Made by a program: the position numbers and the translations under genes. A DNA stretch of 64,000 nucleotides from Holophagaceae bacterium (GTDB lineage: Bacteria; Acidobacteriota; Holophagae; Holophagales; Holophagaceae). The notes beneath the pieces were generated by a model. That model worked only from the letters and a program-made list of their open reading frames with translations, was not told the origin of the DNA and made no database searches. Where the stretch lies: the NCBI GenBank assembly GCA_013334395.1, contig JAAXXS010000003.1, positions 10,965 through 74,964 of the forward strand, given 5' to 3'. Shown here piece after piece: positions 17,239 to 57,817 of the stretch. Within the stretch, counting starts at the first letter, position 1. The number at the start of each line of letters is the position of its first letter.

Positions 17239-17247
17239 GGTTTCCCC

Positions 17248-18426: not shown

Positions 18427-18443
18427 CGGTATGATCTCCTTGG

Positions 18444-20031: not shown

Positions 20032-20040
20032 GTGAGCTCC

Positions 20041-20298: not shown

Positions 20299-20306
20299 GG
20301 GTTCTC

Positions 20307-20507: not shown

Positions 20508-20512
20508 GGCTC

Positions 20513-20932
20513 TCACTCCTCCGGCGGCGTGCGGGTGATGAACTCAGACGCCACAGACAGCTTCATCTGGGCCAGGCGCAGCGCCTCGCGTGCGGTTTCC
20601 TCGGTCACACCTTCCATCTCGAAGAGGATGCGCCCGGGACGAATCACCGCCACCCAGCCGTCCGGAGCCCCCTTGCCAGAGCCCATGCGGGTTTCCGCTG
20701 GCTTGGAGGTGGTGGGACGATCGGGGAAGATGCGGATCCAGATCTTGCCGCCGCGCTTGATGTGGCGGGTCATGGCGATACGGGCGGCTTCGATCTCACG
20801 GTTGGTGAGCCAGCAGTGCTCCATCGCCTTGAGGCCGAAATCGCCGAAGGCGAGCTCGTTGCCGCGGGTGGCGACGCCGCGGGTGCGGCCCTTCATGGTT
20901 TTGCGGTTCTTGACCTTCTTGGGCATCAGCAT
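20513..20932 (-). CDS. rplP: 50S ribosomal protein L16
   Basis: IWIRIFPD; RMGSGKG. Confidence 0.98.
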
Positions 20933-20941
20933 GGATTCACC

Positions 20942-21589
20942 TCAGCGCTTCACGGTCTCGGCAACCTGGTCGCCCAGATTCACCCAGACCTTGATGCCGA
21001 TGATCCCGTAGGTCGTGCGGGCCTCGGCGAAACCGTAGTCAACACCCGCGCGAATGGTCTGCAGGGGCATCTGGCCGGAGAGGTAGTCCTCGGTCCGGGC
21101 GATCTCGGCGCCGTTCAGGCGGCCAGAGACCTTGATCTTGAAACCCTTGGCACCGAAGCGGATTGCAGCTTCTTCAGCCTTGCGCATGGCGCGGCGGAAG
21201 GCGATGCGACGCTCGAGCTGCTGGGCAACGCCCTCGGCCACGAGCTGGGCGTCCACTTCAGGCTTCTTGATCTCCTGGATGTCGACAGACACGGGGCGGT
21301 TCAGGCGCTTCTGGAGGTCTTCGCGGAGCTTGTCGATCTCAGCACCCTTGCGGCCGATGACGATGCCGGGGCGGGCGGTGTAGATGCGCACGGTGACCTT
21401 GTCGGCGGCGCGCTCGATATCGATCTTCGAGACCATCGCGTTCAGGCTGTGCAGCTGCTTCTTCAGTTCGCGGCGGAGCTTGATGTCCTCGTGGAGCAGC
21501 AGCGCGTAGTCGCGCTTCGAGAACCACTTGCTGTGCCAGTTCTTCTGGTAGACAAGGCGGAACCCGTACGGGTGAACTTTCTGACCCAT
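20942..21589 (-). CDS. rpsC: 30S ribosomal protein S3
   Basis: [12 protein letters not shown]; [11 protein letters not shown]. Confidence 0.98.
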
Positions 21590-21591
21590 GA

Positions 21592-21948
21592 CTACTCCTC
21601 CCCGGCCGCTGACGCGAGCTGGATGGTGATGTGGCAGGTGCGCTTCTGAACCCGGTAGGCCCGGCCCATGGGTGCAGGGCGGACGCGCTTCATGCGGAAG
21701 CCCTCGTCCACGAATGCGGTCTTCACCAGCAGCTCATCGGGATTGACGGAGGGATTCTTGTCGATGGCGTTGGCCACGGCGGAATCCAGCAGTTTGCGGA
21801 TGGGGGCGGCGGCGTACTTCTTGGCCTGCGTGAGGACCCACTGGGCCTCGCCGACATGCTTGCCGCGGATGAGGTCCACCACGAGGCGGGCCTTCTGGGC
21901 CGAGCCGCGCAGGTGGCGAACGGTGGCGGTAGAAACGATCTGTGCCAT
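21592..21948 (-). CDS. rplV: 50S ribosomal protein L22
   Basis: [14 protein letters not shown]; PAPMGRA...KRTCHITI. Confidence 0.98.
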
Positions 21949-21950
21949 CG

Positions 21951-22235
21951 CTATTTCCCCTTCGCCTTGGTGTCTGCCTTGCCGGCATGACCCTTGAACG
22001 TGCGGGTCATAGAGAACTCGCCCAGCTTGTGGCCGATCATGTTCTCAGTGACATAGACAGGAATGAACTTGTTGCCGTTGTGGACGGCGAGGGTAAGACC
22101 GATCATCTGCGGAACGACGGTGGAGCGGCGGGACCAGGTCTTGATCACGCGCTTGTCGTTCGCCGCCTGGGCGACTTCCACCTTCTTCTGGAGGTGGGCG
22201 TCAATGAACGGGCCTTTTTTCAGGGAACGTGCCAT
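21951..22235 (-). CDS. rpsS: 30S ribosomal protein S19
   Basis: RSLKKGPF; TWSRRS; GHKLGEF. Confidence 0.98.
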
Positions 22236-22246
22236 TGTCGGGCCTC

Positions 22247-23068
22247 CTAGTTGATCCGCTTGACGATGAACTTATCCGTGCGACGGTTGCCACGGGTCTT
22301 GTAGCCGCGGGTCGGCTGGCCCCAGGGCGTCACAGGGTGACGACCACCGGAAGTCCGGCCCTCGCCGCCACCATGGGGGTGGTCGACGGGGTTCATGACC
22401 ACGCCGCGGACGGTGGGACGAACCCCCATCCAACGGGTGCGGCCGGCCTTGCCGATCTGGATGTTCTCGTGCTGCAGGTTGCCGACCGTGCCGATCGTCG
22501 CGTAGCAGTCCAGGTGGATCTTGCGGATCTCACCGGAGGGCATGCGGAGCTGGGCGTAGTCGTCTTCCTTCGCCACGAGCTGGGCGAAGGTGCCGGCGGC
22601 GCGGGCGATCTGGCCACCCTTGCCGGGCTTCATCTCGATGTTGTGCACCGTGTTGCCCACCGGGATGTTCCGGAGGGGAAGCGCGTTGCCCACCAGGATG
22701 TCGGCGGTCTTGCCTGCCACCACGACGCGGCCCACTTCCAGGCCGTCGGGGGCCAGGATGTAGCGCTTCTCGCCGTCGGAGTAGACCAGCAGGGCGATGC
22801 GGGCGGTGCGGTTGGGGTCGTACTCGATCGTGGCCACCTTGGCGGGCACTTCGAGCTTGTTGCGCTTGAAGTCGATGATCCGGTACTGGCGCTTGTGGCC
22901 ACCGCCGATGTGGCGGGTGGTGATCCGGCCGGTGTTGGAGCGGCCTCCAGTGCGGTTTCGCTTGGAAATCAGGGAACGCTCAGGCGTGTCCGTGGTGATT
23001 TCCTCGAAGCCGAACTTGGACATGCCACGCTGACCGGGGGTCGTTGGCTTGAGCTGTTTGATGCTCAT
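22247..23068 (-). CDS. rplB: 50S ribosomal protein L2
   Basis: IEYDPNRTA; [13 protein letters not shown]. Confidence 0.98.
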
Positions 23069-23142
23069 GGTTGTCCTCTTGCCTCAGGGTTGAAAGGGGC
23101 GGGCGATAATGGGCAAAGCTTGTCCGTCCGCCATGGAATCGC

Positions 23143-23418
23143 CTACTCGGACGCGGGTGCGCCCTCGGCGAGCTCGACATAGGCCTTCTTGCGGGGGCTG
23201 GAAGTCCCCACGAAACGGCCCAGCCGCTTGGTCCGGCTCGGAATCCGCACGGTGCGGATGTTCTTCACCTTGGACTGGAGAAGCAGTTCGACTGCTTCCC
23301 GGATCTGGTGCTTGGTGGCCCAAGTGGCCACCTCGAACACCTGGATGTTCTTCTCCCGAAGGAGCTGGCCCTTCTCCGTGAGGAGGGGCTTGCGGATCAC
23401 GTCAAAGATCTTGGTCAT
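23143..23418 (-). CDS. rplW: 50S ribosomal protein L23
   Basis: PLLTEK; ATKHQIREAVE; KKAYVEL. Confidence 0.97.
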   Translation of the reverse strand: MTKIFDVIRKPLLTEKGQLLREKNIQVFEVATWATKHQIREAVELLLQSKVKNIRTVRIPSRTKRLGRFVGTSSPRKKAYVELAEGAPASE

Positions 23419-24050
23419 GGCTTCACAACCTCCTGGAGGGCCAGGACGGCTTCCTTGGAGAAGATCACCTGGTCGTACTTGAGGAGCTCATAGACGTTCA
23501 CGCCCAGGCTCTCGACGGTCTGCAGCTTCGGGTTGTTGCCGGCGGCCATGGTGAGCTTCTCGCTGGCTTCGGTGCCGACCAGGAGGGCCGAACCGGTGAC
23601 GCCGAGCTTGCCGAGGGTCTGGACCAGGGTCTTGGTCTTGTGGGACGCGACGTCCCAGTTCTCGACCACCATGATCTGGCCGCTCGCCAGCTTGGCGGAC
23701 AGCGCGTTGCGCAGTGCGGCGCGACGGGCCTTCTTGGGGAAGGCGTAATCGTAGGAACGGGGGTGCGGACCGTGAGTGGTGCCGCCGCCCTTCCAGAGCG
23801 GGCTGCGGATGGAGCCCACACGGGCGCGGCCGGTGCCCTTCTGCTTCCAGAGCTTCTTGCCGGAGCCGCTGACTTCCCACTTGTCCTTGGTCTTCGCGGT
23901 GCCTGCGCGCCGCTTGGCCAGGAAGTGGCGGACCGCTTCCCAGATCAGGTGCTGGTTCACGTCTTCGAGCTTGAAGACTTCAGGCAGGAGCTCGACGGTG
24001 TCGACCTGCTTGTTCTCGAGACTGAGTACGGGGTGCTGGAAGGCTGCCAT
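23415..24050 (-). CDS. rplD: 50S ribosomal protein L4
   Basis: QKGTGRARVGSIRSPLWKGGG; ATG at 24050. Confidence 0.98.
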   Translation of the reverse strand: MAAFQHPVLSLENKQVDTVELLPEVFKLEDVNQHLIWEAVRHFLAKRRAGTAKTKDKWEVSGSGKKLWKQKGTGRARVGSIRSPLWKGGGTTHGPHPRSYDYAFPKKARRAALRNALSAKLASGQIMVVENWDVASHKTKTLVQTLGKLGVTGSALLVGTEASEKLTMAAGNNPKLQTVESLGVNVYELLKYDQVIFSKEAVLALQEVVKP

Positions 24051-24051
24051 C

Positions 24052-24678
24052 TTAGGCCTCCTGCTTGATGACGATGTACCCACCCTTGGGGCCGGGGACG
24101 GCACCCTTGATGAGGAGCAGGTTGTTCTCGACGTCCACCTTGGCGATCTCCAGGTTGCGAACGGTCACCTGGGCGTCGCCCATGTGGCCGGGCATCCGGA
24201 CGCCAGGAAAGACGCGGCTGGGATAGCTGGACTGGCCGATGGAGCCGGGAGCACGGTGGAACATGGAGCCGTGGGTCGCGCGGCCGCCGGAGAAGTGGTG
24301 CCGCTTGATGACGCCGGCGAACCCCTTGCCCTTGCTGATGCCGGTGACGTTCACCTTGGTCTTCGCCTCGAAGGCACTGGCCAGGACACTGTCGCCGGGC
24401 TTGGATTCGTCCGTGGCATCCACCTTGATCTCACGCAGCACGCGGACCGGAGCAACGCCCTGCTTCTCGCAGTGGCCCTTCTCAGCCTTCGTGGCGCGCT
24501 TGCCGCCGTTGGGATCCACGAAGCCGATCTGCACCGCCTCGTAGCCGTCCTTGGCGGAGGTCTTGCGCATCACGACGACACAGGGGCCTGCCTGGATGAC
24601 AGTCACGGGGACAACCTGTCCCTGCTCATTGAAGATCTGGGTCATGCCCAGCTTCTTGCCGATGATTCCTTTTGACAT
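24052..24678 (-). CDS. rplC: 50S ribosomal protein L3
   Basis: GKKLGMTQ; [13 protein letters not shown]; GAVPG. Confidence 0.98.
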
Positions 24679-24692
24679 GATCTCTCCCCCCT

Positions 24693-25019
24693 CTACCGGT
24701 TGCCCTGGCGACTGAAGACCTTGATCTCCACGTCGACGCCAGCAGGCAGGTCGAGACGCATCAGCGTGTCCACGGTGTTCTGAGTGGGATTCAGGATGTC
24801 CAGCAGGCGCTTGTGCGTGCGGATCTCAAACTGGTCCCGGCTCTTCTTGTCCACGTGGGGGCTGCGGTTGACGGTGTACTTGTTCGTACGAGTGGGGAGG
24901 GGGATGGGCCCTGCCACCTGGGCGCCCGTGCGCTTGGCGGTGTCCACGATCTCACGGGTGCTCTGGTCGAGCAGACGGTGGTCGAAGGCACGCAGGCGGA
25001 TGCGGATGTTGTCTTTCAT
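24693..25019 (-). CDS. rpsJ: 30S ribosomal protein S10
   Basis: [10 protein letters not shown]; GPIPLPT; [14 protein letters not shown]; GGAG SD before ATG 25019. Confidence 0.98.
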
Positions 25020-25108
25020 GTTCACTCCATTGGGACGGGGACCGTCCATAGACGTGGGGCGCTGACCGCCCATGTGGATCCGTCCCGGAAACAGGGACAG
25101 GGCTGATC

Positions 25109-25136
25109 AGCATAGCAAAAGCCGCTGGAAATTCAA
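25109..25136 (-). promoter_or_regulatory. Putative sigma70 promoter for the S10 operon
   Basis: Minus strand TTGAAT-N16-TATGCT with a TG extended -10. Confidence 0.65.
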
Positions 25137-25144
25137 CGGCTTTT
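25117..25144 (-). terminator. Putative intrinsic terminator after fusA, overlapping the S10 promoter
   Basis: mRNA aaaagccguug-aauuuc-cagcggcuuuu (11 bp with one G.U). Confidence 0.6.
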
Positions 25145-25306
25145 TTGGAAGAACGCACGACCTCCCGTGGGAGGAAGCGGTGGATCAAGAGGCCCGGCAA
25201 CCTTGCGGTTCGGGAAACGGCCTCACCCCGAGAGGGGCTGGAACAGCAGACTACGGGTCTTGCCTTGCTCTAAAACGGGCATTGTCCGTTGTAGAGATAT
25301 AAATAA

Positions 25307-27415
<2,109 letters not shown>

Positions 27416-27520
27416 TGCGGCCTCCTGAAAGGATCAAATCGGAATCGGATTCGGGGGTGCTTCAAAGACCTTCGCGGAAGGAGCCGCCAAGCCGGCGGCT
27501 CCTTCCGGTCTTGGGTGCTG

Positions 27521-27994
<474 letters not shown>

Positions 27995-28003
27995 TCACCT
28001 CAC

Positions 28004-28402
28004 CTACTTCTTCTTGGCCGGAGCGGCACCGGCCTTGGGCCGCTTCGCACCGTACTTGGAACGGGACTGGTTGCGGCCTGCGACGCCAGTGGCGTCCAGG
28101 GTGCCGCGCACCACGTGATAGCGAACGCCCGGCAGATCCTTCACGCGGCCGCCGCGGATGAGCACGATGCTGTGCTCCTGCAGGTTGTGGCCAACGCCAG
28201 GGATGTAGGTCGTGCACTCGATGCCGTTGGTGAGACGCACACGGGCCACCTTGCGGAGGGCCGAGTTCGGCTTCTTCGGTGTGGTGGTGAACACGCGGGT
28301 GCACACGCCGCGCTTCTGCGGGCAGGCGTCGAGCGCGGGGCTCTTCGTCTTGTTCTGGAATGTTTTCCGCCCAACGCGGATCAGCTGATTGATGGTAGGC
28401 AC
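28004..28402 (-). CDS. rpsL: 30S ribosomal protein S12
   Basis: GTG start giving MPTINQL; [11 protein letters not shown]; [10 protein letters not shown]. Confidence 0.98.
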
Positions 28403-28513
28403 ACCATCCTCCATGGAAGGCACCGGTGAATCCGGGCCTGGGCCCGAGAGGTTCCGCGGAGGGAACATCGGACGGATGAAAACCTGCGCCGACCCACGGG
28501 GCCGGAACCATCT

Positions 28514-46529: not shown

Positions 46530-49151
46530 ATGAAAACCTCTGAGATCCGGCAGCGCTTCCTCCAGTACTTTGAGCACCAGGGCCACCGGCGCGTGGCCTC
46601 CAGCGCGGTCATCGGGCCTGCGGACGACCCCACCGTGATGTGGACGAACTCCGGCATGATCCAGTTCAAGGACGTGTTCCTCGGCAAGGAGAACCGCGAC
46701 TACAACCGTGCCACCAGCAGCCAGAAGTGCCTGCGGGCCGGCGGCAAGCACAACGACCTCGACATGGTGGGCTTCACCGCCCGGCACCACACTTTCTTCG
46801 AGATGCTGGGCAACTTCAGCTTCGGCGACTACTTCAAGGCCGAGGCCATCCGCTTCGCCTGGGAGTTCGTGACCGGGCCGGTCAGCGAGGGCAACCTGGG
46901 CATGGATGCCAGCAAGCTCTGGATCACCGTGTTCGAGGGGGCCGATGGCGTCCCCGCAGATGTCGAGGCCGAGGAGCTCTGGAAGGCGGCCGGCGTGCCT
47001 GCGGAGCGCATCATGCGCTGCGGCAAGAAGGACAACTTCTGGCAGATGGGCGATACCGGCCCCTGCGGACCCTGCTCCGAGATGCACTACGACCGGGGCG
47101 CCCATGTCCCGGGCGACGCCGTCCCCAACGGGGAGGGCGACCGGGTCATGGAGATCTGGAACCTGGTCTTCATGCAGTACGAGCGCGACCCGAAGGGCGT
47201 CCTGACCCCCCTGCCCAAGCCCAGCATCGACACGGGCATGGGCCTTGAGCGCACCGCCAGCATCCTCCAGGGCGTGGACTCGAACTACGAGATCGACCTC
47301 TTCGCACCCATCTTCGAGGCCATCTGGAAGGCCGCCAAGGTGCGGCCGGAAGACCGGCACGAGCTGGCCAACCGCACGGCCTCCCAGGTCATCGCGGACC
47401 ACATCCGGGCCGCCACCTTCATGTGCTACGACGGTGTGGTGCCCGGCAACGAGGGGCGCGGCTACGTGCTGCGCAAGATCGTGCGCCGCGCCCTGCGCTT
47501 CGGCCGGAAACTCGGCATCGAGGGGCTCTTCTTCTCGGATCTGGCCCCCGCTGTCTTCCAGGCCATGGGGGATCAGTATCCGGAGCTGCTCCCGGAGCTG
47601 GGCCGCATCCAGAAGGCACTCCACCGCGAGGAGCGGCAGTTCAGCCAGACCCTCTCCACCGGCCTGAAGATCCTCGAGGCCAGCGCGGTCACCGCCGGGA
47701 CCCTCGCGGGCTCGGACATCTTCAAGCTCTACGACACCTATGGCTTCCCCGTGGATCTGGTGGAGGACTGGTGCCGGGAGCGGCAGATCACCGCCGACCT
47801 GGCCGGCTTCCAGCTTGAGCTCAATGCCCAGCGCACCCGCGCCCGGGCGGCCATGAAGTCCCACGACCTGCGGCTGGCAGGCGATCTCGCCATCCTGGCC
47901 GATCTCCCCCCGACCCGCTTCACCGGCTACGACCAGCTCGAGAGCCAGGCGCACGTGGTGGCCCTCTTCGACGCCGGGCACCGCCGGGTGAAGCAGCTCA
48001 CGGGCGACGGCTACGCCCTGCTCGACCGCACGCCCTTCTATGCCCTGTCCGGCGGTCAGGTGGGGGACACCGGCCAGCTCCGCTTCGAAGGCGGCCACGC
48101 CGAAGTCCTGGACACCACGGCCCCGGCCCACCGGCGCCATCTGCACAAGGTCCAGGTCACCGGTTCCTTGGTGGAGAACACCACGGTCAACGCCCATGTC
48201 CACCCCATCCGCCGCCGCCGGATCCGCGCACACCACACGGCGACCCACCTGCTCCACGCCGCCCTGCGGGAGGTGCTTGGCACCCACGTGAAGCAGGCCG
48301 GCAGCGTGGTGGACGCCGCCCGGCTGCGCTTCGACTTCACCCACTTCGCCCCGCTGGAGCCCACGCAGATCGTCGAGATCGAGCGGCTGGCCTCCCGGCA
48401 GGCCCTGCGGTCCATCGACACGAACGTGCGGGAGATGGACATCGAGGAGGCCCTCACATCCGGGGCCATGGCCCTCTTCGGCGAGAAATACGGCGATGTG
48501 GTGCGGGTGGTGCAGGTCCCTGGCTTCTCCACGGAGCTCTGCGGCGGCACCCATGTGCCCAACACTGGCGAGATCGGCGTGGTGAAGATCATCTCCGAGG
48601 GCGCCGTGAGCGCCGGTGTCCGGCGCATCGAGGCCGTCGCCGGAGAGATGGCGCTGGAACTCCTCCAGGCCGACGAGGCCATGATCCACCAGCTGTCCCG
48701 CCAGGCCAACACCGGCCGGGAGGCCCTGCCTGAGCTGCTCACAACCCGGGACCACCGCATCGCCCAGCTTGAGCGGGACCTGAAGGAAGCCAAGCTGAAG
48801 GCCGCCAGCGGTGGCAGCGGCGCGGAACAGGTCGAGCAGGTCAACGGCACCACCCTCGTGATCGCCCAGGTGGAGGGTCTCGAGGGCAACGCCCTGCGCG
48901 AGCTCATGGACCAGGTCCGCACCCGTCACCACAGCGCCGTCATCGTGCTCGCTTCGACGGTGGCCGCGGACAAGGTGGCGGCCCTGGTGTCCGTCTCTCC
49001 AGACCTCACCTATGACGCGGGCGCCCTCTTCCGCGCCATGCTGCCCGCCCTCAGCGGCCGCGGCGGCGGCAAGAAGGACCTGGCCCAGGGCGGCGGCAGC
49101 AACCCCGCCGGCCTCCCGGAAGCCCTGGCAGCCGTAAAGGCCGCGCTTTAG
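46530..49151 (+). CDS. alaS: Alanine--tRNA ligase
   Basis: RHHTFFEMLGNFSFGDYFK, DTGMGLER, HTATHLLH, ELCGGTH and GGG...AQGG motifs. Confidence 0.98.
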   Translation: MKTSEIRQRFLQYFEHQGHRRVASSAVIGPADDPTVMWTNSGMIQFKDVFLGKENRDYNRATSSQKCLRAGGKHNDLDMVGFTARHHTFFEMLGNFSFGDYFKAEAIRFAWEFVTGPVSEGNLGMDASKLWITVFEGADGVPADVEAEELWKAAGVPAERIMRCGKKDNFWQMGDTGPCGPCSEMHYDRGAHVPGDAVPNGEGDRVMEIWNLVFMQYERDPKGVLTPLPKPSIDTGMGLERTASILQGVDSNYEIDLFAPIFEAIWKAAKVRPEDRHELANRTASQVIADHIRAATFMCYDGVVPGNEGRGYVLRKIVRRALRFGRKLGIEGLFFSDLAPAVFQAMGDQYPELLPELGRIQKALHREERQFSQTLSTGLKILEASAVTAGTLAGSDIFKLYDTYGFPVDLVEDWCRERQITADLAGFQLELNAQRTRARAAMKSHDLRLAGDLAILADLPPTRFTGYDQLESQAHVVALFDAGHRRVKQLTGDGYALLDRTPFYALSGGQVGDTGQLRFEGGHAEVLDTTAPAHRRHLHKVQVTGSLVENTTVNAHVHPIRRRRIRAHHTATHLLHAALREVLGTHVKQAGSVVDAARLRFDFTHFAPLEPTQIVEIERLASRQALRSIDTNVREMDIEEALTSGAMALFGEKYGDVVRVVQVPGFSTELCGGTHVPNTGEIGVVKIISEGAVSAGVRRIEAVAGEMALELLQADEAMIHQLSRQANTGREALPELLTTRDHRIAQLERDLKEAKLKAASGGSGAEQVEQVNGTTLVIAQVEGLEGNALRELMDQVRTRHHSAVIVLASTVAADKVAALVSVSPDLTYDAGALFRAMLPALSGRGGGKKDLAQGGGSNPAGLPEALAAVKAAL

Positions 49152-49171
49152 GTTTCCAGCATTGCCGCATA

Positions 49172-49198
49172 CTCGGTATCGGCTGCGCCGATACCGAG
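49172..49198. terminator. Hairpin between convergent alaS and the cytochrome cluster
   Basis: ctcggtatcggc-tgc-gccgataccgag, 12-bp stem; no U-tract. Confidence 0.55.
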
Positions 49199-49236
49199 AT
49201 ACACAAGGACTGATCGTGAAGTAGGCTGGTTACGAC

Positions 49237-50202
49237 TTACTTGTTTCCGCCTTTTTCGTGGCAGCCCAGGCAAGTGATGAGCTTGGGGTCGGGGCTGCGC
49301 CAGTAGACGCTATCCTGGCCCGCCACCTCCTTGCGGAGGTTCTCGGGCACCCGGGCCCAGTAGAAGATGAAGGCCGTGCTCCCGTCCGCCTTGGTCTCCT
49401 TCATGTAGAGCGGGCCGGGCTCCGTGCCCGGTTTGCCCTTCTCATCTGTGTAGGTGGCCATCACCGCATAGGCACCTGGGCGCAGCGGCTTGCCAGCCTG
49501 GTAGTCATCGATGCCCGAGGCGGTGACCCAGATCCTGCGCCACCGGTCGCCATGGGCCTTGCTTCGAGAGGGTGCCACTTCTGCTGGCTCAAGGCTGGCG
49601 TAGTCCAGGGCCCGGATCGGGAGATCGGCCTCCTGGTCGTTCCGCTTGGCGGCATCCGCCTCGGCGGCGGCCTTGTTGGTGGCCTCATTGCCGAACACCA
49701 TGATGCCCCCCAGCTTGCCGCTGAAGCCCCAGGTACCCAGCCAGAGGAGTCCCACCAGGAGAGCCGGCACGCCAGCACCCCGCTCGAAGAACCGCCGTCC
49801 CCCGTGGCGGCGGTCCGCGGGTCCAGCCTCCAGGTTCCGCCACGCGCGCCAGAGGAGGAAAACGCAGAGGCCGCCGATGACAAAGCCCGCAGCTGCCGCG
49901 AAGATGTGCAGTTGCAGCATCTTCTGGAGGACCTGTTTTTCGGAGGCAATCACCGGGAGGAACCCGGAAGGTGGAATCAGGTTGATCTGCCGCCCCCACA
50001 CCAGCCCGCTGAAGAGGGCCGCGGTGCTGCCGACCCAGGCCACCAGGGCCAGGAAGAAGGCGGTGCCCGTCGTCACCTTGCTGTGCTTCGGGAAGAAGGA
50101 GGCGAGCACCGCCAGAGGCAGGGCTGCCACCAGGCCCAGGGGCAGGTGCACAAAGGCCGGGTGCTCCCGGGCGATGAACTCGAGAAGAGGAGAGGCGATC
50201 AT
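49237..50202 (-). CDS. Membrane protein (DUF2231-like N-terminus) fused to a C-terminal single-heme c domain
   Basis: HPAFVHLPLG and four hydrophobic segments; C-terminal CLGCH at 49258-49272. Confidence 0.8.
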   Translation of the reverse strand: MIASPLLEFIAREHPAFVHLPLGLVAALPLAVLASFFPKHSKVTTGTAFFLALVAWVGSTAALFSGLVWGRQINLIPPSGFLPVIASEKQVLQKMLQLHIFAAAAGFVIGGLCVFLLWRAWRNLEAGPADRRHGGRRFFERGAGVPALLVGLLWLGTWGFSGKLGGIMVFGNEATNKAAAEADAAKRNDQEADLPIRALDYASLEPAEVAPSRSKAHGDRWRRIWVTASGIDDYQAGKPLRPGAYAVMATYTDEKGKPGTEPGPLYMKETKADGSTAFIFYWARVPENLRKEVAGQDSVYWRSPDPKLITCLGCHEKGGNK

Positions 50203-50214
50203 GAGACTCCTGGC

Positions 50215-51084
50215 TTAGAACACGCGTGCGACGTTGAAGCCGAAGGCCCACTGCGACGAGAGCCGGGGGCCGCCGCCGTAGTCGCCGCTGAGCACCTGGT
50301 TGGCGGTGGTGCCGCTTGCGTTGGTGCCAAACATCGTGAAGCGGTGCTTGAAGGTCTTGTAGGAGAAGCCTGCGGCGAACCCGTTCTGGTAGGTGGTGCC
50401 ATCGGTGATGCCGCCCGGGGCTGCCTTGGCGAACTTCGACGGCCGGGGGTAGTACTCGGTCGCGAAGGAGAACTTGTCCGTGAAGCCGACGCGCAGGCCC
50501 AGGCCCACGTTGAAGACCCCGCCCTTGTTCGGCGTGGTGTTCGGCGTCTTGCCCGGGGGCACCGGCAGGATGGTATCGGTGGTGGTGGTCTTGGTGATGT
50601 AGGTCGGGACCACCGAGAAGATGATGTCGTCCGTGAGGAAGATCTCGGTGGGCAGCTGAGCCGTCAGGCCGGAGATGCCCACCTTGCCCAGAGGCGTGAC
50701 GGTCTCCTTCACCACCTCATCGAACCGCTCCACACGAATGGCCATGCGGACCCGGTCCCCGTTCATTACCTGCTGCTGGAGGCCCACGTTGAAGGTCTTG
50801 TTGTCCGCCGTGCGGTAGATGAAGGCGTTCAGGCCCTTGATGGGCTTGATGCCGAAGGTGAAGCCCACCCCGGCGTAGGCATAGCCATCCAGACCGTAGA
50901 CGTCTTTGCCGTGGTCCTTCATGGGCTGGATGAACCGGTGCGTGAACACCACCCCCAGGTCCCAGTACTGCATCCGTTCCGCCGAGGGGAGGTTGATCAC
51001 CAGCGGGTAGTCGGAGGACTCGGCGCGGAGGGTGCCCCCGGCCAGGAGGGCACAGAGCAGCAGAGGGGTGTGCTTCAGTGTCAT
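50215..51084 (-). CDS. Outer-membrane beta-barrel protein (DUF5777-like)
   Basis: Signal peptide; INLPS...FTHRF start; alternating strands; terminal FGFNVARVF. Confidence 0.75.
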   Translation of the reverse strand: MTLKHTPLLLCALLAGGTLRAESSDYPLVINLPSAERMQYWDLGVVFTHRFIQPMKDHGKDVYGLDGYAYAGVGFTFGIKPIKGLNAFIYRTADNKTFNVGLQQQVMNGDRVRMAIRVERFDEVVKETVTPLGKVGISGLTAQLPTEIFLTDDIIFSVVPTYITKTTTTDTILPVPPGKTPNTTPNKGGVFNVGLGLRVGFTDKFSFATEYYPRPSKFAKAAPGGITDGTTYQNGFAAGFSYKTFKHRFTMFGTNASGTTANQVLSGDYGGGPRLSSQWAFGFNVARVF

Positions 51085-51101
51085 CGGAGCTCCAGGAGAA
51101 G

Positions 51102-51452
51102 TCACTTGGCGGCGAACTTGCGCATGATCCCAATCATGGCCTTAGCATCAGCCTCGGACATCTTGTCCTTAAAGGCTGGCATCTTCTCCTTGCCCTGCAG
51201 GGTGACCTTGACCCAGTCGCTGTCCTTCTTCTTGTTGGCCTTCCGGCTGTCCGTGAAGTCGAAGCCGGAATCCGGCAGCGGCTTGCCGCTGTTGTCGCGG
51301 CCATTGCCGTTGAAGCCATGGCAGCGGGCGCAGGCATCATTCCAATACTTGTTGAGGTCGCCTCCCTGGAACTTGGGCAGATCCTTGGCGGGATCACCCG
51401 CCAGCAGGGTTGCGCCGGCGAGGAGCAGGGCAGAGAGGATGGTGAGCCGCAT
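51102..51452 (-). CDS. Monoheme cytochrome c (class I)
   Basis: Signal peptide, CARCH, distal KMPAF methionine. Confidence 0.9.
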   Translation of the reverse strand: MRLTILSALLLAGATLLAGDPAKDLPKFQGGDLNKYWNDACARCHGFNGNGRDNSGKPLPDSGFDFTDSRKANKKKDSDWVKVTLQGKEKMPAFKDKMSEADAKAMIGIMRKFAAK

Positions 51453-51491
51453 GAAGGGCCTCCTAATAGGTCGGGGGGGGTGGGCTGAAAA

Positions 51492-53894
51492 CTAGTTCCA
51501 GAGGTTGCCGGTGGTGGTGTGGGTCTCCCCGTGGCAGGCGAGGGCGCATCCGCCCCTGCCCTGGGTGGCATTCACCGTGTAGGTCAGGGCCCCGGTGGCC
51601 GGCGTGACGCCGCCCCCGAACTTGATGGTGTCACTGGAGAGCTGGTCCGTGGCGTTGCGGACGGCCGTGGTGCCCAGATACTTGAAGTGGTTGACCACCC
51701 CGGTTCGGTTGTTGGTGGTGGCAGACATGTCGTGGCAGTGATCGCAAGTCTGGTTATGGTCCCCGGGGTTGTTGTGGCGGCCGGTGGCGTCGTTGTACTG
51801 GGTCGCGGTGGACGTGATCTTGTGGCAGGAAAGACAGTAGGTCGTGGCATTGAAGGTGAGCTTCCCGCTCTGCCACCCGGGGGTGGTCTGGCCGCCGTGG
51901 CAACTCACGGCGTTGCAAGTAAACGCCGTCAGGCTGGCCGTGGTGCCAAGTGTTCCGGTCTGGGCCTTGAAGGTGGCACTGATGGTCACCGGGGCAGGTC
52001 CGGTCCCAGTCGGAGTTCCATTCGGGCCACGGTTGGCGCCGTTGTAGTGCGGTTGGCTCGAGCCGCCCTCACCCGGCTGCGAGCCTGCATGGCAGGTCGC
52101 GCAGGTGAGCGTCGTGGGCAGGCCCATGTGCTTGCCGTGGGCGCCGGCAATGTTGGGGAAGGTCGTCCCAGCAGGCCCGAGGGTCTTGAAGCTGGGATCC
52201 GAATGGCAGGAGAGGCAGGTGCCCGCGCCCTTGCCAGCCGCCAGCGGCGAGGCACTGACGTGGCACTTGGTGCAGCTGGGACCGACCTTGCCGGCACCTA
52301 GCCCGGCCTCATCGTGGCAATTGATGCACTCCCCATTGAACATGGCGAGCGTCGCGGTCTGGTGGGTATTGCCTGTCCCGGAGCTGGTCGTCATCCCGGT
52401 GAGGAAGGGGGCCGGGTGTGCCGCGGCGCCCGGACCATTCACGTGACAGCTGTTCGCGTTGAAGGAGGCGCTGAAGCAGCCGGGTGCGGCGACGACGGGA
52501 GACACTGCACCGACAGTCACGCCATGGCACAGGCCACAGACGGCGGCGCGCTGGGTCGTATTGACGGCGGCGGCAGCGTTCCGGTGGGAAGCGGTATAGC
52601 TGCCACTGGCAATGCTGCCGGGCGATTTATACCAGCTGTCTGGATGCGCCTTGGCCTGGAGGTGGCAACTTGAGCAGGTGGTCGTGGTGGTCCCGCCATC
52701 GAACTTGTTGGTGCCGGGAACCCCATGGCAGGTCTGGCAGGATAGGAGGTCGGCCTTGGCCACCACCCCATGGAATGTGGCATCCGTGGCCCCAGTCGTC
52801 TTGGGATCCGTCCAGGTGGCCCCGATAGGATGGGGGGCCACGCCGGGTCCATTGGCGTGGCAGCTGACGGCGGCATGCTCAGAGTTGCCGAAGCTGGCGC
52901 TGTAGCAGCCGGGAGCGGCCGTCAGGGCAGAGGTGCTGGTCTTGGTGACGGCGTGGCAGATCACACAGGAGCCGTTCGCCTTCAGCGGATCCGTGGCATT
53001 CCGGTGGGAAGGCACATAGCCCGGGAAGGTCCCGACGGAGGCCATGTTCCAGGTCGTCGGGTGGGCACCAGCCCCCGTCGTCTTGGAATGGCAGGAGGAG
53101 CAGGCCGTGGCGGCGGAGCCCCCGTCGAACTTGGTGGTGCCTGGCGTGCCGTGGCAGCTCTGGCAGTACTTCAGATCCTTCTTGGCCTCGATGCCGTGGT
53201 AAGCGGTGCTCGTCGGATCCTTCCAGATGGCGCCGAGCGCGTGCGGCGCGCCGACGTCGGCATGGCACAGCGTGGCGTTGTAGCAGCCGGGCTGCGTCCC
53301 GGCTGGCGCCGGGGTGGCCGGGTGCCCGGCTGGATTATTGGCTGATCCCGGGAAGTGGCAGGTCGCGCAGACCGCCGCATTGGAGGTATCCGTCGAGGTG
53401 TGACTCCAGAGGGTGCCACCGGAGGTGCGCCAAGGCTTCGGGGGATGCGGCGCATTCACGCCGTGGCAGGTAGAGCAGGTCTTCGCCGAGGCGCCACCAG
53501 CAAAGTCATTGCCGTGGCAGATCTTGCAGGACACCAGACTCCCCCCGGTGAGGGCGTCCACGGCCACCTTGGCCCTTGCCCCGTGGACATCGGAGTTGGC
53601 CCACCCAGGAACGGTCTGGTGGTGACAGCCCGTGGTCATGCAGGTCGGGATGCCGCTGCCCACCTTGAGCACAGAGATCTCATGGCAGCGGGTGCAGTTG
53701 TCGATGCCGGCGATGGCGCTGCCAGGGTGCGTGTCGATCCAGCCCGCCGCGTGGTAGTTACCGTAGTAGTTGGCGACCCCGCCAGCTGCAGGCTTGGTGC
53801 CGCCACAGCCCATGAGGCCGACCAGGCAAGCGAGAAGGCATCCGAAGAGTCCCTGTAGGCCTGCTCGTTGGTCCCGGTTCTGATTCCTGCTCAT
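51492..53894 (-). CDS. Multiheme c-type cytochrome lipoprotein (up to 22 heme sites)
   Basis: Lipobox LMGC; 16 CxxCH plus CX3CH, two CX4CH, CX5CH, CX9CH and CX14CH, counted by hand. Confidence 0.93.
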   Translation of the reverse strand: MSRNQNRDQRAGLQGLFGCLLACLVGLMGCGGTKPAAGGVANYYGNYHAAGWIDTHPGSAIAGIDNCTRCHEISVLKVGSGIPTCMTTGCHHQTVPGWANSDVHGARAKVAVDALTGGSLVSCKICHGNDFAGGASAKTCSTCHGVNAPHPPKPWRTSGGTLWSHTSTDTSNAAVCATCHFPGSANNPAGHPATPAPAGTQPGCYNATLCHADVGAPHALGAIWKDPTSTAYHGIEAKKDLKYCQSCHGTPGTTKFDGGSAATACSSCHSKTTGAGAHPTTWNMASVGTFPGYVPSHRNATDPLKANGSCVICHAVTKTSTSALTAAPGCYSASFGNSEHAAVSCHANGPGVAPHPIGATWTDPKTTGATDATFHGVVAKADLLSCQTCHGVPGTNKFDGGTTTTTCSSCHLQAKAHPDSWYKSPGSIASGSYTASHRNAAAAVNTTQRAAVCGLCHGVTVGAVSPVVAAPGCFSASFNANSCHVNGPGAAAHPAPFLTGMTTSSGTGNTHQTATLAMFNGECINCHDEAGLGAGKVGPSCTKCHVSASPLAAGKGAGTCLSCHSDPSFKTLGPAGTTFPNIAGAHGKHMGLPTTLTCATCHAGSQPGEGGSSQPHYNGANRGPNGTPTGTGPAPVTISATFKAQTGTLGTTASLTAFTCNAVSCHGGQTTPGWQSGKLTFNATTYCLSCHKITSTATQYNDATGRHNNPGDHNQTCDHCHDMSATTNNRTGVVNHFKYLGTTAVRNATDQLSSDTIKFGGGVTPATGALTYTVNATQGRGGCALACHGETHTTTGNLWN

Positions 53895-54212
53895 GTGGAC
53901 ACCCAAGAATGGCTGGCGGCTCGTGAAGGAGGGACGCTGGCGGAGGGAGAATAAATCAGGCTTGTGGATGGCTCAGAGACCCATCGTCACGGCATTGCAA
54001 CAGCATGAGGATTACTTGAGGTCGATCTTACGAAGCGCCCCGGGTTTATTCCTGAGGGAAAATGTAGACAAGAAGTGCTGCTGCATGACTAGTCCACTAT
54101 CGCGTGAGATTTCCATTGATCCTATATCCCGATTGGTTGCCCATTCCTAGACCATAGGGTCTAGGCCTTCACCATTGATCCTACTCGGGTTATGGCATAA
54201 TCTTCAGCTTCC

Positions 54213-57179
54213 ATGGCCGCACGGTTTGCAGGAAACCGATATCCCGACTCAGGCGCTCTCCGGCGCCTCGCCTTCCTGCTGCTCTGGCTGTGTGCCTCGG
54301 CTTTTGCACTCGATCCGGACCGGCCCCTGGCCACCCACGCGCATCGCTCCTGGCGGAGCGAGGATGGCTTGCTTCAGGACACTGCTGTGGCACTTCTTGA
54401 GAGCCGGGGCGGTTTCCTCTGGGTCGGCACCGAGGCAGGTCTGGTCCGCTTCGACGGCGCCAGCTTTGAGCACCGCTCCCGGGTGGAAGTCCCCGCCTTT
54501 GTTCACAACCGGATCCAAGCCCTGGCCGAGGGCGACCGCGGAGCCATCTGGGTCGCCACCTCGGAACCGGGGCTCTACCTGTTTGATCAGGGCGCCATGC
54601 GCGCTCTGGGTTCGGAAGCTGGATTGCCAGACAACCCCATCCGGCGCCTGCTGAGAGACCGGGCAGGAACGCTCTGGGCCGCGCCCACCGAAGGACCCCT
54701 GCTCCGCTACGACGGGAAGCGCTTCCAGACGGTGCCCTCGGATGCCGCCCATCTGCGCATCCGGGCGCTGGCGGAGGATCCGGAGGGCGGGCTCTGGGTG
54801 GGCACCTCGGGTTCCGGCCTCTGGCGCCTGCGGGAGGGGCGCCTCGTGGTGGCGGCGCTGACTGCGGCGGAGATCACCACCCTGGAAATCGGCACCGATG
54901 GAGATGTCTGGGTCGGGACCCGAGCCCAGGGTCTCTTCACGCTGGCAGATGGCCAGCTGTGGGCACCACCCTGGGTCCGTGGGCTGCCGGCGCAAGGCAT
55001 CAGCGCGCTCCGCCTGGATCGCGAGGGCAGCTTGTGGATCGGCCTGGAGCAGGCCGGACTCTTCCGGCGGACCCCGGCCGGACGCCTGGAGGCGGCGCCA
55101 AGCCTAGGCAATGCCCGCAGCACCCCCCTCGCCCTGCTGGAGGACCGCTCCGGCGCCCTGTGGGCGGGCACCGAACACCACGGCCTGCATGTCCTCTACC
55201 CAGTTCCCTTCCGGGGCCTCCCCCTGGTCGGTGCTCCCCCCGAGGAGCCCCTCAGAATGGTCTGCCAGGACTCCGGGGGCTCGGTCTGGTGCGTGACGGT
55301 GGACCACGCCCTGGGCATGGTCCGTCCTGGGCAGGTGGAGCGGGCCCCCCGGGGCAGCCAACCCAACGCCCCGATCACGGCCCTCTGGCCGCGCCTGGCC
55401 GGGGGCCTCTGGCTGGGCACCCGGAAGGGTGAACTCTATACGCTGGATCAGGGCCACCTCCAGCGAGCCGACGTGGCCCAGGGGCCCCGTTCAGACGCCA
55501 TCCTCACGATCTTCGAGGATGGCCAGCGGGTGCTGTGGGTCGCCACGGCGCGGCAGGGCCTGTTCCGGATTCCGCCCAGCGGTTCTCCCCTGCTCTTTCC
55601 GACGGTCCAAGGTGTCCTGGCCATGGCTGGCGGCGGCACGCAGCCCCTGTATCTCGCCAGCCCCACCCAGGGCCTGGGCATCGTGGATGCCGGCCAGGTG
55701 CGCTGGCTGGGCCGGGCCGAAGGGCTGGGCTCCGCCGGAGCCCAGTCGCTCCACCTGAGCGAGGATGGGAACCTCTGGGTCGGCACCGGGGAGGGCCTCC
55801 GGCGCTTCCGGGACGGTCGGTTCCAGCCCCTCCCCGATCACGCCGCGCCCCTCCTCCTGGCCATTCACGCGATCCTCGAGGACCGCACCGGGCGGCTGTG
55901 GCTGAGCACGACCCAGGGTGTGTTCCGGATCCCCCGGGAGGCCCTCCTGCGGAGTCACCGGGAGCCTGGCACCTTGCCCATGATGGTCTTCGACCAGCAC
56001 GACGGCATGCCCTCCCGCGAGACGCTGGGAGGCCCCCAGCCCGCCGCCTGGCTCACCCGCGAAGGAGCCCTCTACTTTCCCACCAGCCGCGGACTGTCCC
56101 GGATGGACGGCAACGCCTCCGCGCCGAAAGGCCCCCCGCTCACCCTCCTCCTGCTGAGGGCCGAAGCCGACGAGACAACCCTCCCGGAAACCCATCCCAT
56201 CCAGGTTCCCCCGGGAACCCACCGCTTCGAGATCTACTACACGGCAGCCTCGCTGACCCGGGCCGACAAGGTCCGCTTCCGCTACCGGCTGGAAGGGTGG
56301 GAGCAGGCCTGGAATGAGGTGGGGAGCCGCCGCTTCTCCGCCTACTCAAACCTGCCCCCGGGTTCCTACCGGTTCGTGGTCCAGTCCTGGCGACTGGACG
56401 TTGAGGGCCGGCCCGAGGAATGCGCGGTGGACGTCCGGGTGCAGCCCTTCCTGTACCAGCGGCCGACCTTCTGGGTGGTCTGCGGACTCGCTGCTGCAGC
56501 CTTCGGCTGGTGGCTGCTGCGCCTCCGCCTCCAGCAGATGGAGGCCCGCTCCGCCGTCCTTGCCGAGCGGAACCGCATCGCCCGGGAGATCCACGACCAC
56601 CTCGCCCAAGGCTTCACGGGCGTCCTGCTGCAGCTGGAGGCGGCCGAGGCCAAGCTCACCCGCATGGAGGGCGATCCGGCCCCGGTCCTCACACGCATCG
56701 AGCACGCCCGGAACCTGGCCGCGGACAGTCTGCAGGAAGCCCGCCGCTCGGTCATGACACTCAGCCCCCGGAAGCCCGAAGGCAAGGACCTCCTGGGCTC
56801 TCTGCGGATCCTGGCCGACCGCCTGCTGGCGGGGACGGAGATCCAGGTGGAGTTGGCCCTCACCGGAGAGCCCCGGCCGCTCCGCAACCAGCTGGAGGAG
56901 GATCTCCTCCGCATGGCCCAGGAGCTTCTGACCAATGCCCTGCGGCACGGCAAGGCAAGGTGGGTGCGCATCGTGCTGCAGTTCGAGGGGCGGCTGGTGC
57001 ACCTCAGCATCGAGGATGACGGGTGCGGCTTCGACCCCTCCGCCAGCGCCGCCGGCTATGGCATGCGCAGCATCCGTGAGAGCCTCAAGACGCTGCGGGG
57101 GCACCTCGACATCGACAGCACTCCGGGTTTCGGTTCTCGCATCACCCTCACAGTGCCCATCCGAAGGTGGCCCTTATGA
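54213..57179 (+). CDS. Sensor histidine kinase with periplasmic beta-propeller (Reg_prop) and Y_Y_Y domains, HisKA_3 type
   Basis: Repeated GxLWxGT blades; FRYRLEG...YSNLPPGSYRF; TM; ERNRIAREIHD; NALRH, DDG.GF and GYGM boxes. Confidence 0.93.
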   Translation: MAARFAGNRYPDSGALRRLAFLLLWLCASAFALDPDRPLATHAHRSWRSEDGLLQDTAVALLESRGGFLWVGTEAGLVRFDGASFEHRSRVEVPAFVHNRIQALAEGDRGAIWVATSEPGLYLFDQGAMRALGSEAGLPDNPIRRLLRDRAGTLWAAPTEGPLLRYDGKRFQTVPSDAAHLRIRALAEDPEGGLWVGTSGSGLWRLREGRLVVAALTAAEITTLEIGTDGDVWVGTRAQGLFTLADGQLWAPPWVRGLPAQGISALRLDREGSLWIGLEQAGLFRRTPAGRLEAAPSLGNARSTPLALLEDRSGALWAGTEHHGLHVLYPVPFRGLPLVGAPPEEPLRMVCQDSGGSVWCVTVDHALGMVRPGQVERAPRGSQPNAPITALWPRLAGGLWLGTRKGELYTLDQGHLQRADVAQGPRSDAILTIFEDGQRVLWVATARQGLFRIPPSGSPLLFPTVQGVLAMAGGGTQPLYLASPTQGLGIVDAGQVRWLGRAEGLGSAGAQSLHLSEDGNLWVGTGEGLRRFRDGRFQPLPDHAAPLLLAIHAILEDRTGRLWLSTTQGVFRIPREALLRSHREPGTLPMMVFDQHDGMPSRETLGGPQPAAWLTREGALYFPTSRGLSRMDGNASAPKGPPLTLLLLRAEADETTLPETHPIQVPPGTHRFEIYYTAASLTRADKVRFRYRLEGWEQAWNEVGSRRFSAYSNLPPGSYRFVVQSWRLDVEGRPEECAVDVRVQPFLYQRPTFWVVCGLAAAAFGWWLLRLRLQQMEARSAVLAERNRIAREIHDHLAQGFTGVLLQLEAAEAKLTRMEGDPAPVLTRIEHARNLAADSLQEARRSVMTLSPRKPEGKDLLGSLRILADRLLAGTEIQVELALTGEPRPLRNQLEEDLLRMAQELLTNALRHGKARWVRIVLQFEGRLVHLSIEDDGCGFDPSASAAGYGMRSIRESLKTLRGHLDIDSTPGFGSRITLTVPIRRWPL

Positions 57180-57817
57180 CCTCAGACTCGACCGAACGCA
57201 TCCGCCTCCTCATCGTGGATGACCACCCGATCGTGCGTGACGGGCTGGTTGCCATCCTTCACGAAGGTGAGCCCGACCTGGAGGTCGTGGGCGAAGCCGG
57301 CGATGGCAAGGAAGCCGTGGTGGCCTGGCGGAACCTGCGCCCCACGGTGACCATCATGGACCTCCAGCTGCCGGGACAGACCGGCGTCGAGGCCATCAAG
57401 GCCATCCGCCGGGAGGACCCCGAGGCCCGGGTGCTGGTGCTCACGACCTTCGACGGCGACGCGGACATCCAGCGCGCCCTCGAGGCCGGCGCCCGCGGCT
57501 ACCTGCTCAAGAACGTGCGCAGAGCCGCCCTGATCGAAGCCGTCCGGGCGGTGGCGGCAGGACAGCGCTACCTGCCGCCGGCCACGGCGGCCCGCTTGGT
57601 GGAGGCCATGGAGTCCGAGCGCCTCACCGCCCGTGAGCTCGACGTGCTGCGTCTGCTCGCCCTGGGCGAGCGCAACCGCGAGATCGCCAAGACCCTTGGT
57701 CTGGCTGAGCCCACGGTGAAGATCCACGTGAACAACCTGCTGCGGAAGCTCGAGGCCAAGGACCGGACGGAGGCGACCGTGATCGCCCTCCGGCGCGGCC
57801 TCATCCACCTCTCGTGA
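57176..57817 (+). CDS. NarL/LuxR-family response regulator
   Basis: IVDDHPIVR, IMDLQLP, LTTFD; HTH LTARELDVL...TVKIHVNN; ATGA overlap with the kinase. Confidence 0.95.
   Translation: MTSDSTERIRLLIVDDHPIVRDGLVAILHEGEPDLEVVGEAGDGKEAVVAWRNLRPTVTIMDLQLPGQTGVEAIKAIRREDPEARVLVLTTFDGDADIQRALEAGARGYLLKNVRRAALIEAVRAVAAGQRYLPPATAARLVEAMESERLTARELDVLRLLALGERNREIAKTLGLAEPTVKIHVNNLLRKLEAKDRTEATVIALRRGLIHLS

Follow-up and report, generated by a model that had tools for sequence, protein, structure and literature searches.

A conserved Holophagaceae operon with a split cytochrome–barrel unit as a candidate route for electrons across the cell envelope

In a 64,000-nucleotide stretch from a Holophagaceae bacterium (assembly GCA_013334395.1, contig JAAXXS010000003.1; hereafter the window, with positions counted from its first letter), we analysed an operon of four co-oriented minus-strand genes, A, B, C and D in the order of transcription, which presents itself as a real, previously undescribed candidate route for electrons across the envelope. 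A codes for a multihaem c-type cytochrome lipoprotein of 800 residues from its ATG (51492..53894; open reading frame and motif counts); B for a secreted class-I monohaem cytochrome c of 116 residues (51102..51452; PF13442 and PF00034); C for an outer-membrane beta-barrel of 289 residues belonging to the DUF5777 family (50215..51084; PF19089); and D for a membrane protein of 321 residues (49237..50202; Pfam and an AlphaFold2 (AF2) model), whose DUF2231-like N-terminal half with four transmembrane (TM) helices is followed by a C-terminal c-haem domain. We propose, with our confidence evenly divided, that these genes specify an envelope electron-transfer module, the outer-membrane end of which is a two-gene version of a fused cytochrome–barrel protein; this end is plausibly Cyc2-like rather than Mtr-like.

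The evidence that carries this proposal comes from B and C and from the relatives in which they are joined. B matches PF13442 at 39.7 bits and PF00034 at 30.6 bits and has one CxxCH (CARCH) behind a signal peptide without Cys, which bears out its description as a monohaem cytochrome c by the sequence-only reading of the window that preceded this study. There is a single His in the whole protein; hence, bis-His ligation of its haem is impossible, and the Met of a KMPAF motif is the likely sixth ligand. DUF5777 is present in 83 of the 301 Acidobacteriota genomes sampled, and in many of these the barrel bears an N-terminal monohaem class-I cytochrome c within one polypeptide (loci L005–L011, L014, L016, L019, L021 and L030). 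Such cytochrome–DUF5777 fusions are spread over many families of the phylum, and a database search with one of them returned about 60 proteins carrying PF19089 together with PF13442 and PF00034. In profile–profile alignments B corresponds to the cytochrome part of the fusions (hhalign probability 94.5%, E 7e-8), and C, over residues 29–289, to their barrel part (probability 99.3%, E 2e-20). Since their counterpart in other Acidobacteriota is a single fused protein, B and C together constitute a split cytochrome–barrel unit.

The redox domain joined to the barrel can also be of other kinds. A cupredoxin/COX2-like domain (PF13473, PF00116) stands N-terminal to the DUF5777 barrel in P0308 and P0310 (also L048, G050:C19, from Pyrinomonadaceae-type Acidobacteriota), and by its domain composition this protein would be the copper counterpart of the cytochrome fusion. 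Other DUF5777 barrels are fused to PSCyt1-like haem domains or preceded by PSCyt1-type haem lipoproteins. Thus, from its cytochrome, cupredoxin and PSCyt1 fusions and neighbours, the DUF5777 barrel emerges as a recurrent partner of single-centre redox domains.

Several further arrangements around DUF5777 were recorded in passing. Directly upstream of, and on the same strand as, the fused cytochrome c–DUF5777 gene in L034, L035, L039 and L041 lies a gene for a conserved protein of about 465 residues, which combines Ig-like repeats with a C-terminal PSCyt1-like domain bearing an unusual CALAGCH (CxxxxCH) motif. In another acidobacterial lineage (L037, L042, L043 and L036) the gene that comes after an unfused DUF5777 barrel codes for a conserved protein of about 337 residues with two TM helices and double zinc-ribbon motifs (CPECH…CxxC), the CPECH of which is probably a zinc-ribbon Cys pair and not a haem site. 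At L071 (G242:C7) a distant DUF5777 (37% identical to C) precedes a B-like monohaem cytochrome (36%); the order there is C–B, with neither A nor D.

The size of the barrel limits the ways in which electrons might pass the outer membrane. Gene C starts with an ATG at 51084 preceded by GGAG, and its length of 289 residues is common to nearly all of the 120 homologues listed. It scores 78.3 bits against PF19089 (cut-off 23.1) over positions 6–247 of the 247 in the model, and a whole-genome scan places the only PF19089 gene of the source assembly here. The Pfam scan of C gave no match to PF11854/MtrB/PioB or another large porin and, beyond DUF5777, just a sub-threshold OMP_b-brl; an MtrB-like identity of C is ruled out by this result and by its size. 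For the fold, we modelled the fused relative P0241 (AF2, 62-sequence alignment) and transferred the strand count to C through a full-length profile alignment. The P0241 model (predicted local distance difference test (pLDDT) 92.9; predicted template-modelling score (pTM) 0.82) displays the helices of a cytochrome c domain, an ordered connecting segment of 28 residues and 12 beta strands by DSSP; each of the 12 strands has its counterpart in C, whose last residues are ARVF with a terminal Phe. Its nearest neighbours in Foldseek, with TMt up to 0.74, are the 12-stranded COG4313 (4rl8), FapF (5o68), NanC (2wjr), a KdgM-type porin (8xua) and the designed 9fdg, and the 14-stranded OmpG is also among the matches. 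C is accordingly predicted on the basis of a modelled relative to be a 12-stranded outer-membrane barrel, which would put it in the size class of the NanC, FapF and COG4313 channels. The sequence-only reading had recognised a 289-residue outer-membrane barrel that is not of the MtrB type, and both the family match and the modelled fold agree with it. Judged by the loop lengths and a periplasmic C-terminus, the first strand would begin at the periplasm; in the simplest topology, the cytochrome would then be on the periplasmic face of the barrel, which fits the occurrence of B as a separate soluble protein in Geothrix. The N-terminal segment of the barrel, NLP(T/S), is conserved.

The same reading had proposed a self-contained electron-transfer chain across the envelope. 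Its predicted places stand, namely D in the inner membrane, B in the periplasm, C in the outer membrane and A lipid-anchored; what finds no support is a chain of haems through the barrel, with its 12 strands and one-haem partner. The decahaem MtrA is housed inside the 26-stranded MtrB (PMC8406198), and going by the model a 12-stranded barrel would be unable to enclose a haem chain in that manner. An MtrAB- or porin–cytochrome conduit (Pcc)-style device, in which haems bridge the outer membrane inside C and electrons run from D by way of B/C to a surface-exposed A and onwards to insoluble Fe(III) or electrodes, therefore has to contend with a barrel of less than half the strands, with a periplasmic partner whose one haem is too few to span the membrane, with the missing match of C to PF11854 or any other large porin, and with the impossibility of bis-His ligation in B. 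Low-potential bis-His chains are usual in reductive conduits. On its side are the agreement of the predicted compartments, the conservation of the operon in a clade with Fe(III)- and humics-reducing members, the resemblance of A, as a fast-evolving lipoprotein of variable length, to surface cytochromes, and the non-homologous putative Pcc clusters in Geothrix metagenome-assembled genomes (MAGs; He et al. 2019, PMC6344600). On balance, we hold it to be improbable.

Comparison with the individual conduits leads in the same direction. Like MtrCAB, MtoAB and PioAB, the operon unites a multihaem lipoprotein cytochrome, a periplasmic cytochrome and an outer-membrane barrel; C, however, with 289 residues and 12 strands, has no MtrB/PioB family match, and B, the sole cytochrome of the operon that is not a lipoprotein, has one CxxCH as against the decahaem MtrA/DmsE type. 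The resemblance of A to MtrC/MtrF amounts to a local match of 32 bits to the domain II/IV model. The OmaB–OmbB–OmcB (Pcc) and Ext systems of Geobacter likewise encode a multihaem lipoprotein cytochrome with a barrel and a periplasmic cytochrome, and A has a sub-threshold match to their TIGR01904. In the Geobacter Pcc the periplasmic partner is octahaem and the porin much larger. Separate OmbB-type homologues have been reported in Geothrix MAGs (He et al. 2019, PMC6344600); the A–B–C–D operon would hence be an additional system in these bacteria.

With Cyc2, the Fe(II) oxidase of Acidithiobacillus, Mariprofundus and Gallionellaceae, the B–C pair shares a single c-haem and a small barrel; because such a barrel cannot house a haem chain, the substrate must come to the haem in both. 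Further, the fused relatives of B and C have the same order as Cyc2, an N-terminal cytochrome and a C-terminal barrel. The Cyc2 porin, however, has 16 strands, and its cytochrome is marked by the signature AxPxFAR[Q/K][T/Y] five residues upstream of CxxCH and by PxL four residues downstream (PMC8406198). B reads ...LNKYWNDACARCHGFNGNG around its haem motif and the fused relatives read ...ELYESVECSACHGSDAQG; both are devoid of PxFAR[Q/K][T/Y] as well as of PxL. Moreover, B has a full class-I cytochrome c domain (PF13442) in place of the short domain of Cyc2, there are 12 strands in the barrel as against 16, cytochrome and barrel are encoded separately, each with its own signal peptide, and the pair is set within an operon alongside a 22-haem lipoprotein and a P460-like membrane protein. 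Membership of B and C in the Cyc2 family is thus ruled out on motif and strand number; nor are they fused in the source genome, a Cyc2-type fusion being taken as one polypeptide of at least 365 residues with an N-terminal cytochrome and a C-terminal porin.

One alternative is oxidative electron uptake, whereby B and C, acting as a Cyc2-like oxidase at the outer membrane, would draw on Fe(II), Mn(II) or reduced humics as electron donors and hand the electrons through A to D. The class-I nature of B with its exclusion of bis-His ligation, the cupredoxin/COX2-like domains fused to relatives of C and the presence of fused forms in many acidobacterial families are in its favour. High-potential carriers of that kind typify the chains for Fe(II) oxidation, an example being Cyc2, rusticyanin and Cyc1. 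Nevertheless, B and C lack the Cyc2 signature and do not share its number of strands, known Cyc2 systems do not include a multihaem protein of very large size, and cultured Geothrix are described as Fe(III) reducers (PMC8100337); we accordingly regard this version as unlikely.

A different role for the barrel would be that of an anchoring or export device, which, much as 12-stranded polypeptide transporters do, places or holds A at the outer membrane, with B being an ordinary soluble carrier. FapF, which is such a transporter, is among the top structural neighbours, and the fusions are laid out as a domain, a linker and a C-terminal 12-strand barrel, the very order found in autotransporters. 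The cytochrome of Geothrix, however, is separate and secreted and cannot be a covalently attached passenger, and beyond Holophagaceae a large multihaem lipoprotein is missing altogether from most DUF5777 loci; this explanation seems to us very improbable.

The large cytochrome A begins with a lipoprotein signal peptide (residues 1–30, 53805..53894 on the minus strand, by reading of the sequence) that ends in LVGLMG-C30, with LMGC as the lipobox; the longest open reading frame starts at a TTG at 53906 and would add four residues to the ATG start. L-x-G/A-C is kept at the lipobox position in A homologues from more than 40 loci, and Thr, Gly and Ala make up 39% of the protein, so that its earlier description as a Thr/Gly/Ala-rich lipoprotein is upheld. 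Likewise, the "up to 22" haem sites ascribed to it prove to be exact: all 44 Cys of the mature protein fall in 22 C-Xn-CH pairs, which comprise 16 CxxCH, one CxxxCH, two CxxxxCH and three longer-spaced pairs with 5, 9 and 14 residues in between. Its Pfam matches are local only, to Cytochrome_C7, Cytochrom_CIII and PF22113; the last of these, the MtrC/MtrF domain II/IV, is matched at 32 bits (cut-off 30) over model positions 118–168 of 176, i.e., 51 positions. There was no NCBIfam MtrC/OmcA match, TIGR01904, the Geobacter CxxxxCH/CxxCH domain, remained sub-threshold (23.7 bits against a cut-off of 27), and no sequence relatives of A were found in the PDB.

Internally, A contains two copies of a 4-haem module, residues 224–360 (52815..53225, minus strand) and 361–505 (52380..52814, minus strand), which align with a Smith-Waterman score of 333 as against 53 +/- 8 for shuffles; blastp of A against itself lists no repeat, and the duplication is seen only by direct Smith-Waterman alignment. 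Across Holophagaceae, the orthologues of A are 481–1674 residues long in the mature form and carry 10–37 CxxCH, or 14 to 55 motifs with the variants included, and the counts of CxxCH and of all motifs (13/18, 16/22, 22/30) step by about three CxxCH plus one variant, a pattern which fits growth and shrinkage by gain and loss of the 4-haem module. Of the four proteins, A has the lowest identity to the window across loci (36–87%). Being the fastest-evolving of the four, and with haem motifs varying from 14 to 55, A would be an exposed wire under no constraint of length, and the extreme variation argues against its spanning a fixed periplasmic distance; we therefore favour an outward-facing wire, as far as sequence variation can be a guide.

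At the other end of the operon, D was likewise correctly recognised at the outset as an inner-membrane protein with a haem-c domain, having four hydrophobic helices and a CLGCH at residues 311–315. Its AF2 model (pLDDT 82) comprises four TM helices within residues 1–172 (49687..50202, minus strand; model and alignment), a long connecting helix and a beta-rich C-terminal domain, in which strands between residues 204 and 302 are followed by the helix carrying C311–H315. The residues H14, H19, H99, H217, C311, C314 and H315 are invariant; H14 and H19 (EHPAFVH) are at the start of TM1 and H99 is at the start of TM3. Both termini are assigned to the periplasm by the positive-inside rule and by the need for a CxxCH domain to be periplasmic; the three membrane His would then lie near the periplasmic face, where they may form a b-haem or metal site. 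The N-terminal half scores 22.4 bits against PF09990 (DUF2231; cut-off 26.4), and about 30 of the best 120 homologues carry a precomputed PF09990. A profile search found no sequence relatives of D in the PDB. The family is very small, with 72 clusters among 1.84 billion representatives.

The haem domain of D (residues 200–321, 49237..49605, minus strand) is assigned by Foldseek and by profile intermediates. The sole coherent family among its Foldseek matches is that of cytochrome c'-beta (7s5o) and cytochrome P460 (8gar, 6e0z, 2je2), at modest scores (E 0.02–0.5, TMt 0.39–0.46), and its match to PF16694 falls below the cut-off (14.3 bits against 27, E 0.056). The profile of D, however, reaches standalone proteins of about 200 residues (E 1e-8 to 1e-16), which themselves score 30–40 bits on PF16694, above the cut-off, and share the invariant His217; further, the D homologue P0146 bears the UniRef name "Cytochrome P460 domain-containing". 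A direct Pfam P460 scan of the whole genome gave nothing at E <= 1, since the domain is too divergent for the Pfam model. Through these intermediates, then, sequence and model place the haem domain of D in the cytochrome P460/c'-beta superfamily. As in the known members (PF16694; 2je2, 8gar, 7s5o), the domain is beta-rich with CxxCH near its C-terminus, but here it is tethered to a 4-TM DUF2231-like module. P460 proper is marked by a cross-link between a Lys and a five-coordinate catalytic haem, and D aligns too weakly with the solved P460 structures for that Lys to be assigned.

This affinity invites the explanation that the operon has no part in extracellular electron transfer (EET) and instead encodes a periplasmic redox or detoxification enzyme system for a small N or O species such as NO, NH2OH or peroxide, with the haem of D as the active site, A and B as the electron supply and C as a solute channel. 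Characterised members of the P460/c'-beta superfamily bind or convert NO and NH2OH, and the invariance of His217 in the D subfamily agrees with such a role. Searches of A with Pfam, NCBIfam and a motif scan, in contrast, revealed neither a hydroxylamine oxidoreductase (HAO) or nitrite-reductase family match nor a CxxCK motif, and the fusion of the barrel to cytochromes and cupredoxins across the phylum would be left unexplained. In our judgement, an enzyme of this type is decidedly unlikely.

The four genes are conserved as a unit. In a pattern scan with the D alignment, using one genome per species, we recovered 56 loci, all from Holophagaceae or Holophagales, in 50 of which A, B, C and D occur in that order on one strand. 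The others are L080 and L098, which are cut by contig ends, L125, with a partial D match, and L126–L128, which are distant DUF2231-only relatives. The order is kept in about 18 loci with neither alaS nor the sensor kinase of the window flanking it, and the co-conservation of the four genes lies far beyond chance. Identities to the window are 52–96% for D, 50–94% for C and 63–94% for B; the nearest named records for D are from uncultured Holophagaceae MAGs (96% identity), and the cultured carriers include Geothrix limicola, G. terrae, G. campi, G. paludis, G. oryzisoli and G. rubra. The sequence-only reading had raised conservation of the gene order in other metal reducers: the order is indeed conserved in 50 species-level Holophagaceae loci, but it was found only in that family. 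When 30 DUF5777 loci in other Acidobacteriota were searched by phmmer for A, B and D, the barrel alone was recovered, which rules out D beside DUF5777 outside Holophagaceae at these loci; in 16-kb contexts, the conserved neighbours of non-Holophagaceae DUF5777 are an IPT/PSCyt1-type haem lipoprotein, an NtrC-type two-component pair or a zinc-ribbon membrane protein. Hence, by sequence, the association of a soluble class-I cytochrome, a giant modular multihaem lipoprotein and a DUF2231–P460 protein with the DUF5777 barrel appears specific to Holophagaceae, the only place where it was found. Separately, in L118 and L120, a second, weaker tblastn match of C lies downstream of D and is possibly an extra DUF5777 copy.

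In the window, which has a G+C content of about 66% and whose proteins are closest to Geothrix and Holophagaceae sequences (the assembly consists of 343 contigs, 3.16 Mb, and is 96% complete), the intergenic gaps are 39 nt for A/B, 17 nt for B/C and 12 nt for C/D. A scan of 48900–54400 detected no terminator-like site in these gaps, in agreement with the original description of four tightly packed minus-strand genes without a terminator between them; its three matches all lie within the coding sequence of D and represent no excess over the 3.5 +/- 2.1 expected from shuffles. Upstream of A, a divergent intergenic region of 318 bp (53895..54212) is likely to hold the promoter and regulatory region, an assignment made tentatively from reading of the sequence because a scan of this region did not find a sigma-70 consensus. 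Beyond it, on the plus strand, lie genes for a sensor histidine kinase (54213..57179) with the Pfam domains Reg_prop (a beta-propeller), Y_Y_Y, HisKA_3 and HATPase_c, and for a LuxR/NarL-type response regulator (57167..57817; Pfam Response_reg and GerE), which overlaps the kinase gene. The kinase adjoins the operon in 32 Holophagaceae loci, and also in L001, and regulator copies 83–89% identical adjoin the kinase in relatives; the kinase/LuxR pair is followed by a gene for RNase Y. The other flank is occupied by purH and alaS (alaS at 46530–49151, plus strand). Between D and alaS, L001 (Geothrix sp. CP126625), L055, L056, L058 and L059 have a gene for a dCache hybrid sensor kinase–receiver of about 770–800 residues, which is absent from the window. 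Elsewhere, the window has an ordinary ribosomal-protein/secY/fusA cluster (10486–28468, minus strand).

Briefly, we advance the following mechanism for the proposed envelope module with its cytochrome–barrel unit at the outer membrane. B, as a class-I monohaem cytochrome c of the His/Met type, would dock on the periplasmic face of C, and a small diffusible redox species, such as an Fe2+/Fe3+ chelate, Mn, a quinone-type shuttle or a humic fragment, would reach the cytochrome through or at the barrel. A might serve as a lipid-anchored modular multihaem wire or store of variable length, which collects or distributes electrons, whereas D, with its four TM helices, conserved membrane His and P460/c'-beta-like c-haem, would form the inner-membrane end. 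Control of expression probably falls to the divergently encoded kinase of the propeller type and its LuxR regulator. Of these steps, we infer the docking face, the access of small substrates, the place of A, the direction of electron flow and the link to quinones. As the barrel cannot hold a haem chain, a Cyc2-like crossing of electrons is the most likely one. With regard to direction, the exclusion of bis-His ligation in B, the cupredoxin fused to relatives of C and the P460-like nature of D weigh against a classical reductive conduit, whereas the Fe(III) and humics reducers in the host group and the size of A are in favour of one.

Several observations weigh against the proposed module. Geothrix-type genomes contain a second DUF5777 paralogue of about 265 residues, 40–46% identical to C (L057, L060, L062, L063, L064, L066, L069 and L072), which is situated between AmpG-like permease and acyl-CoA-synthetase-like genes without a cytochrome neighbour; an adjacent redox partner is thus not invariable for these barrels. 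DUF5777 is missing from two of the 13 sampled genomes of the genus, so that the module is not universal there, and the many conserved charged residues of the barrel are compatible with a closed, purely anchoring structure. Further, family searches of D matched no known quinol dehydrogenase or quinol-oxidase family, and the P460/c'-beta-like fold of its haem domain is known from haems that bind ligands or act in catalysis and not from electron relays.

In our literature search, we found no mention of DUF5777, and DUF2231 was named once, in an unrelated database paper; nor did we find the A–B–C–D cluster described in the literature on EET in Geothrix. Surveys of humic lakes refer, for Geothrix MAGs, to clusters called "putative novel PCC" and to EET genes called "uncharacterized", but give no description of either (including PMC6344600). 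Tentatively, and with more doubt than belief, we extend the proposal to a DUF5777 barrel with a docked or fused single-centre redox domain as a third class of redox gateway in the outer membrane, widespread but so far undescribed, beside the large porin–cytochrome complexes and Cyc2, with A–B–C–D as the EET route of Geothrix-type bacteria, furnished with a surface wire of 14 to 55 haems.

Geothrix and its relatives among the Holophagaceae, which respire Fe(III) and humics, abound in humic lakes, paddy soils, aquifers and wastewater plants, and their molecular route for EET has so far been undefined; the operon supplies a concrete, conserved and testable candidate for it. The fusions identify a 12-stranded family of unknown function as a dedicated partner of one-electron redox domains, and they raise the mechanistic question, which applies equally to Cyc2, of how a barrel with no room for haems lets electrons or redox substrates across the outer membrane. 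Searches of the FeGenie type would miss the B–C unit, and if this unit acts on soluble shuttles or metal chelates, the marker genes by which electroactive bacteria are sought in metagenomes would change.

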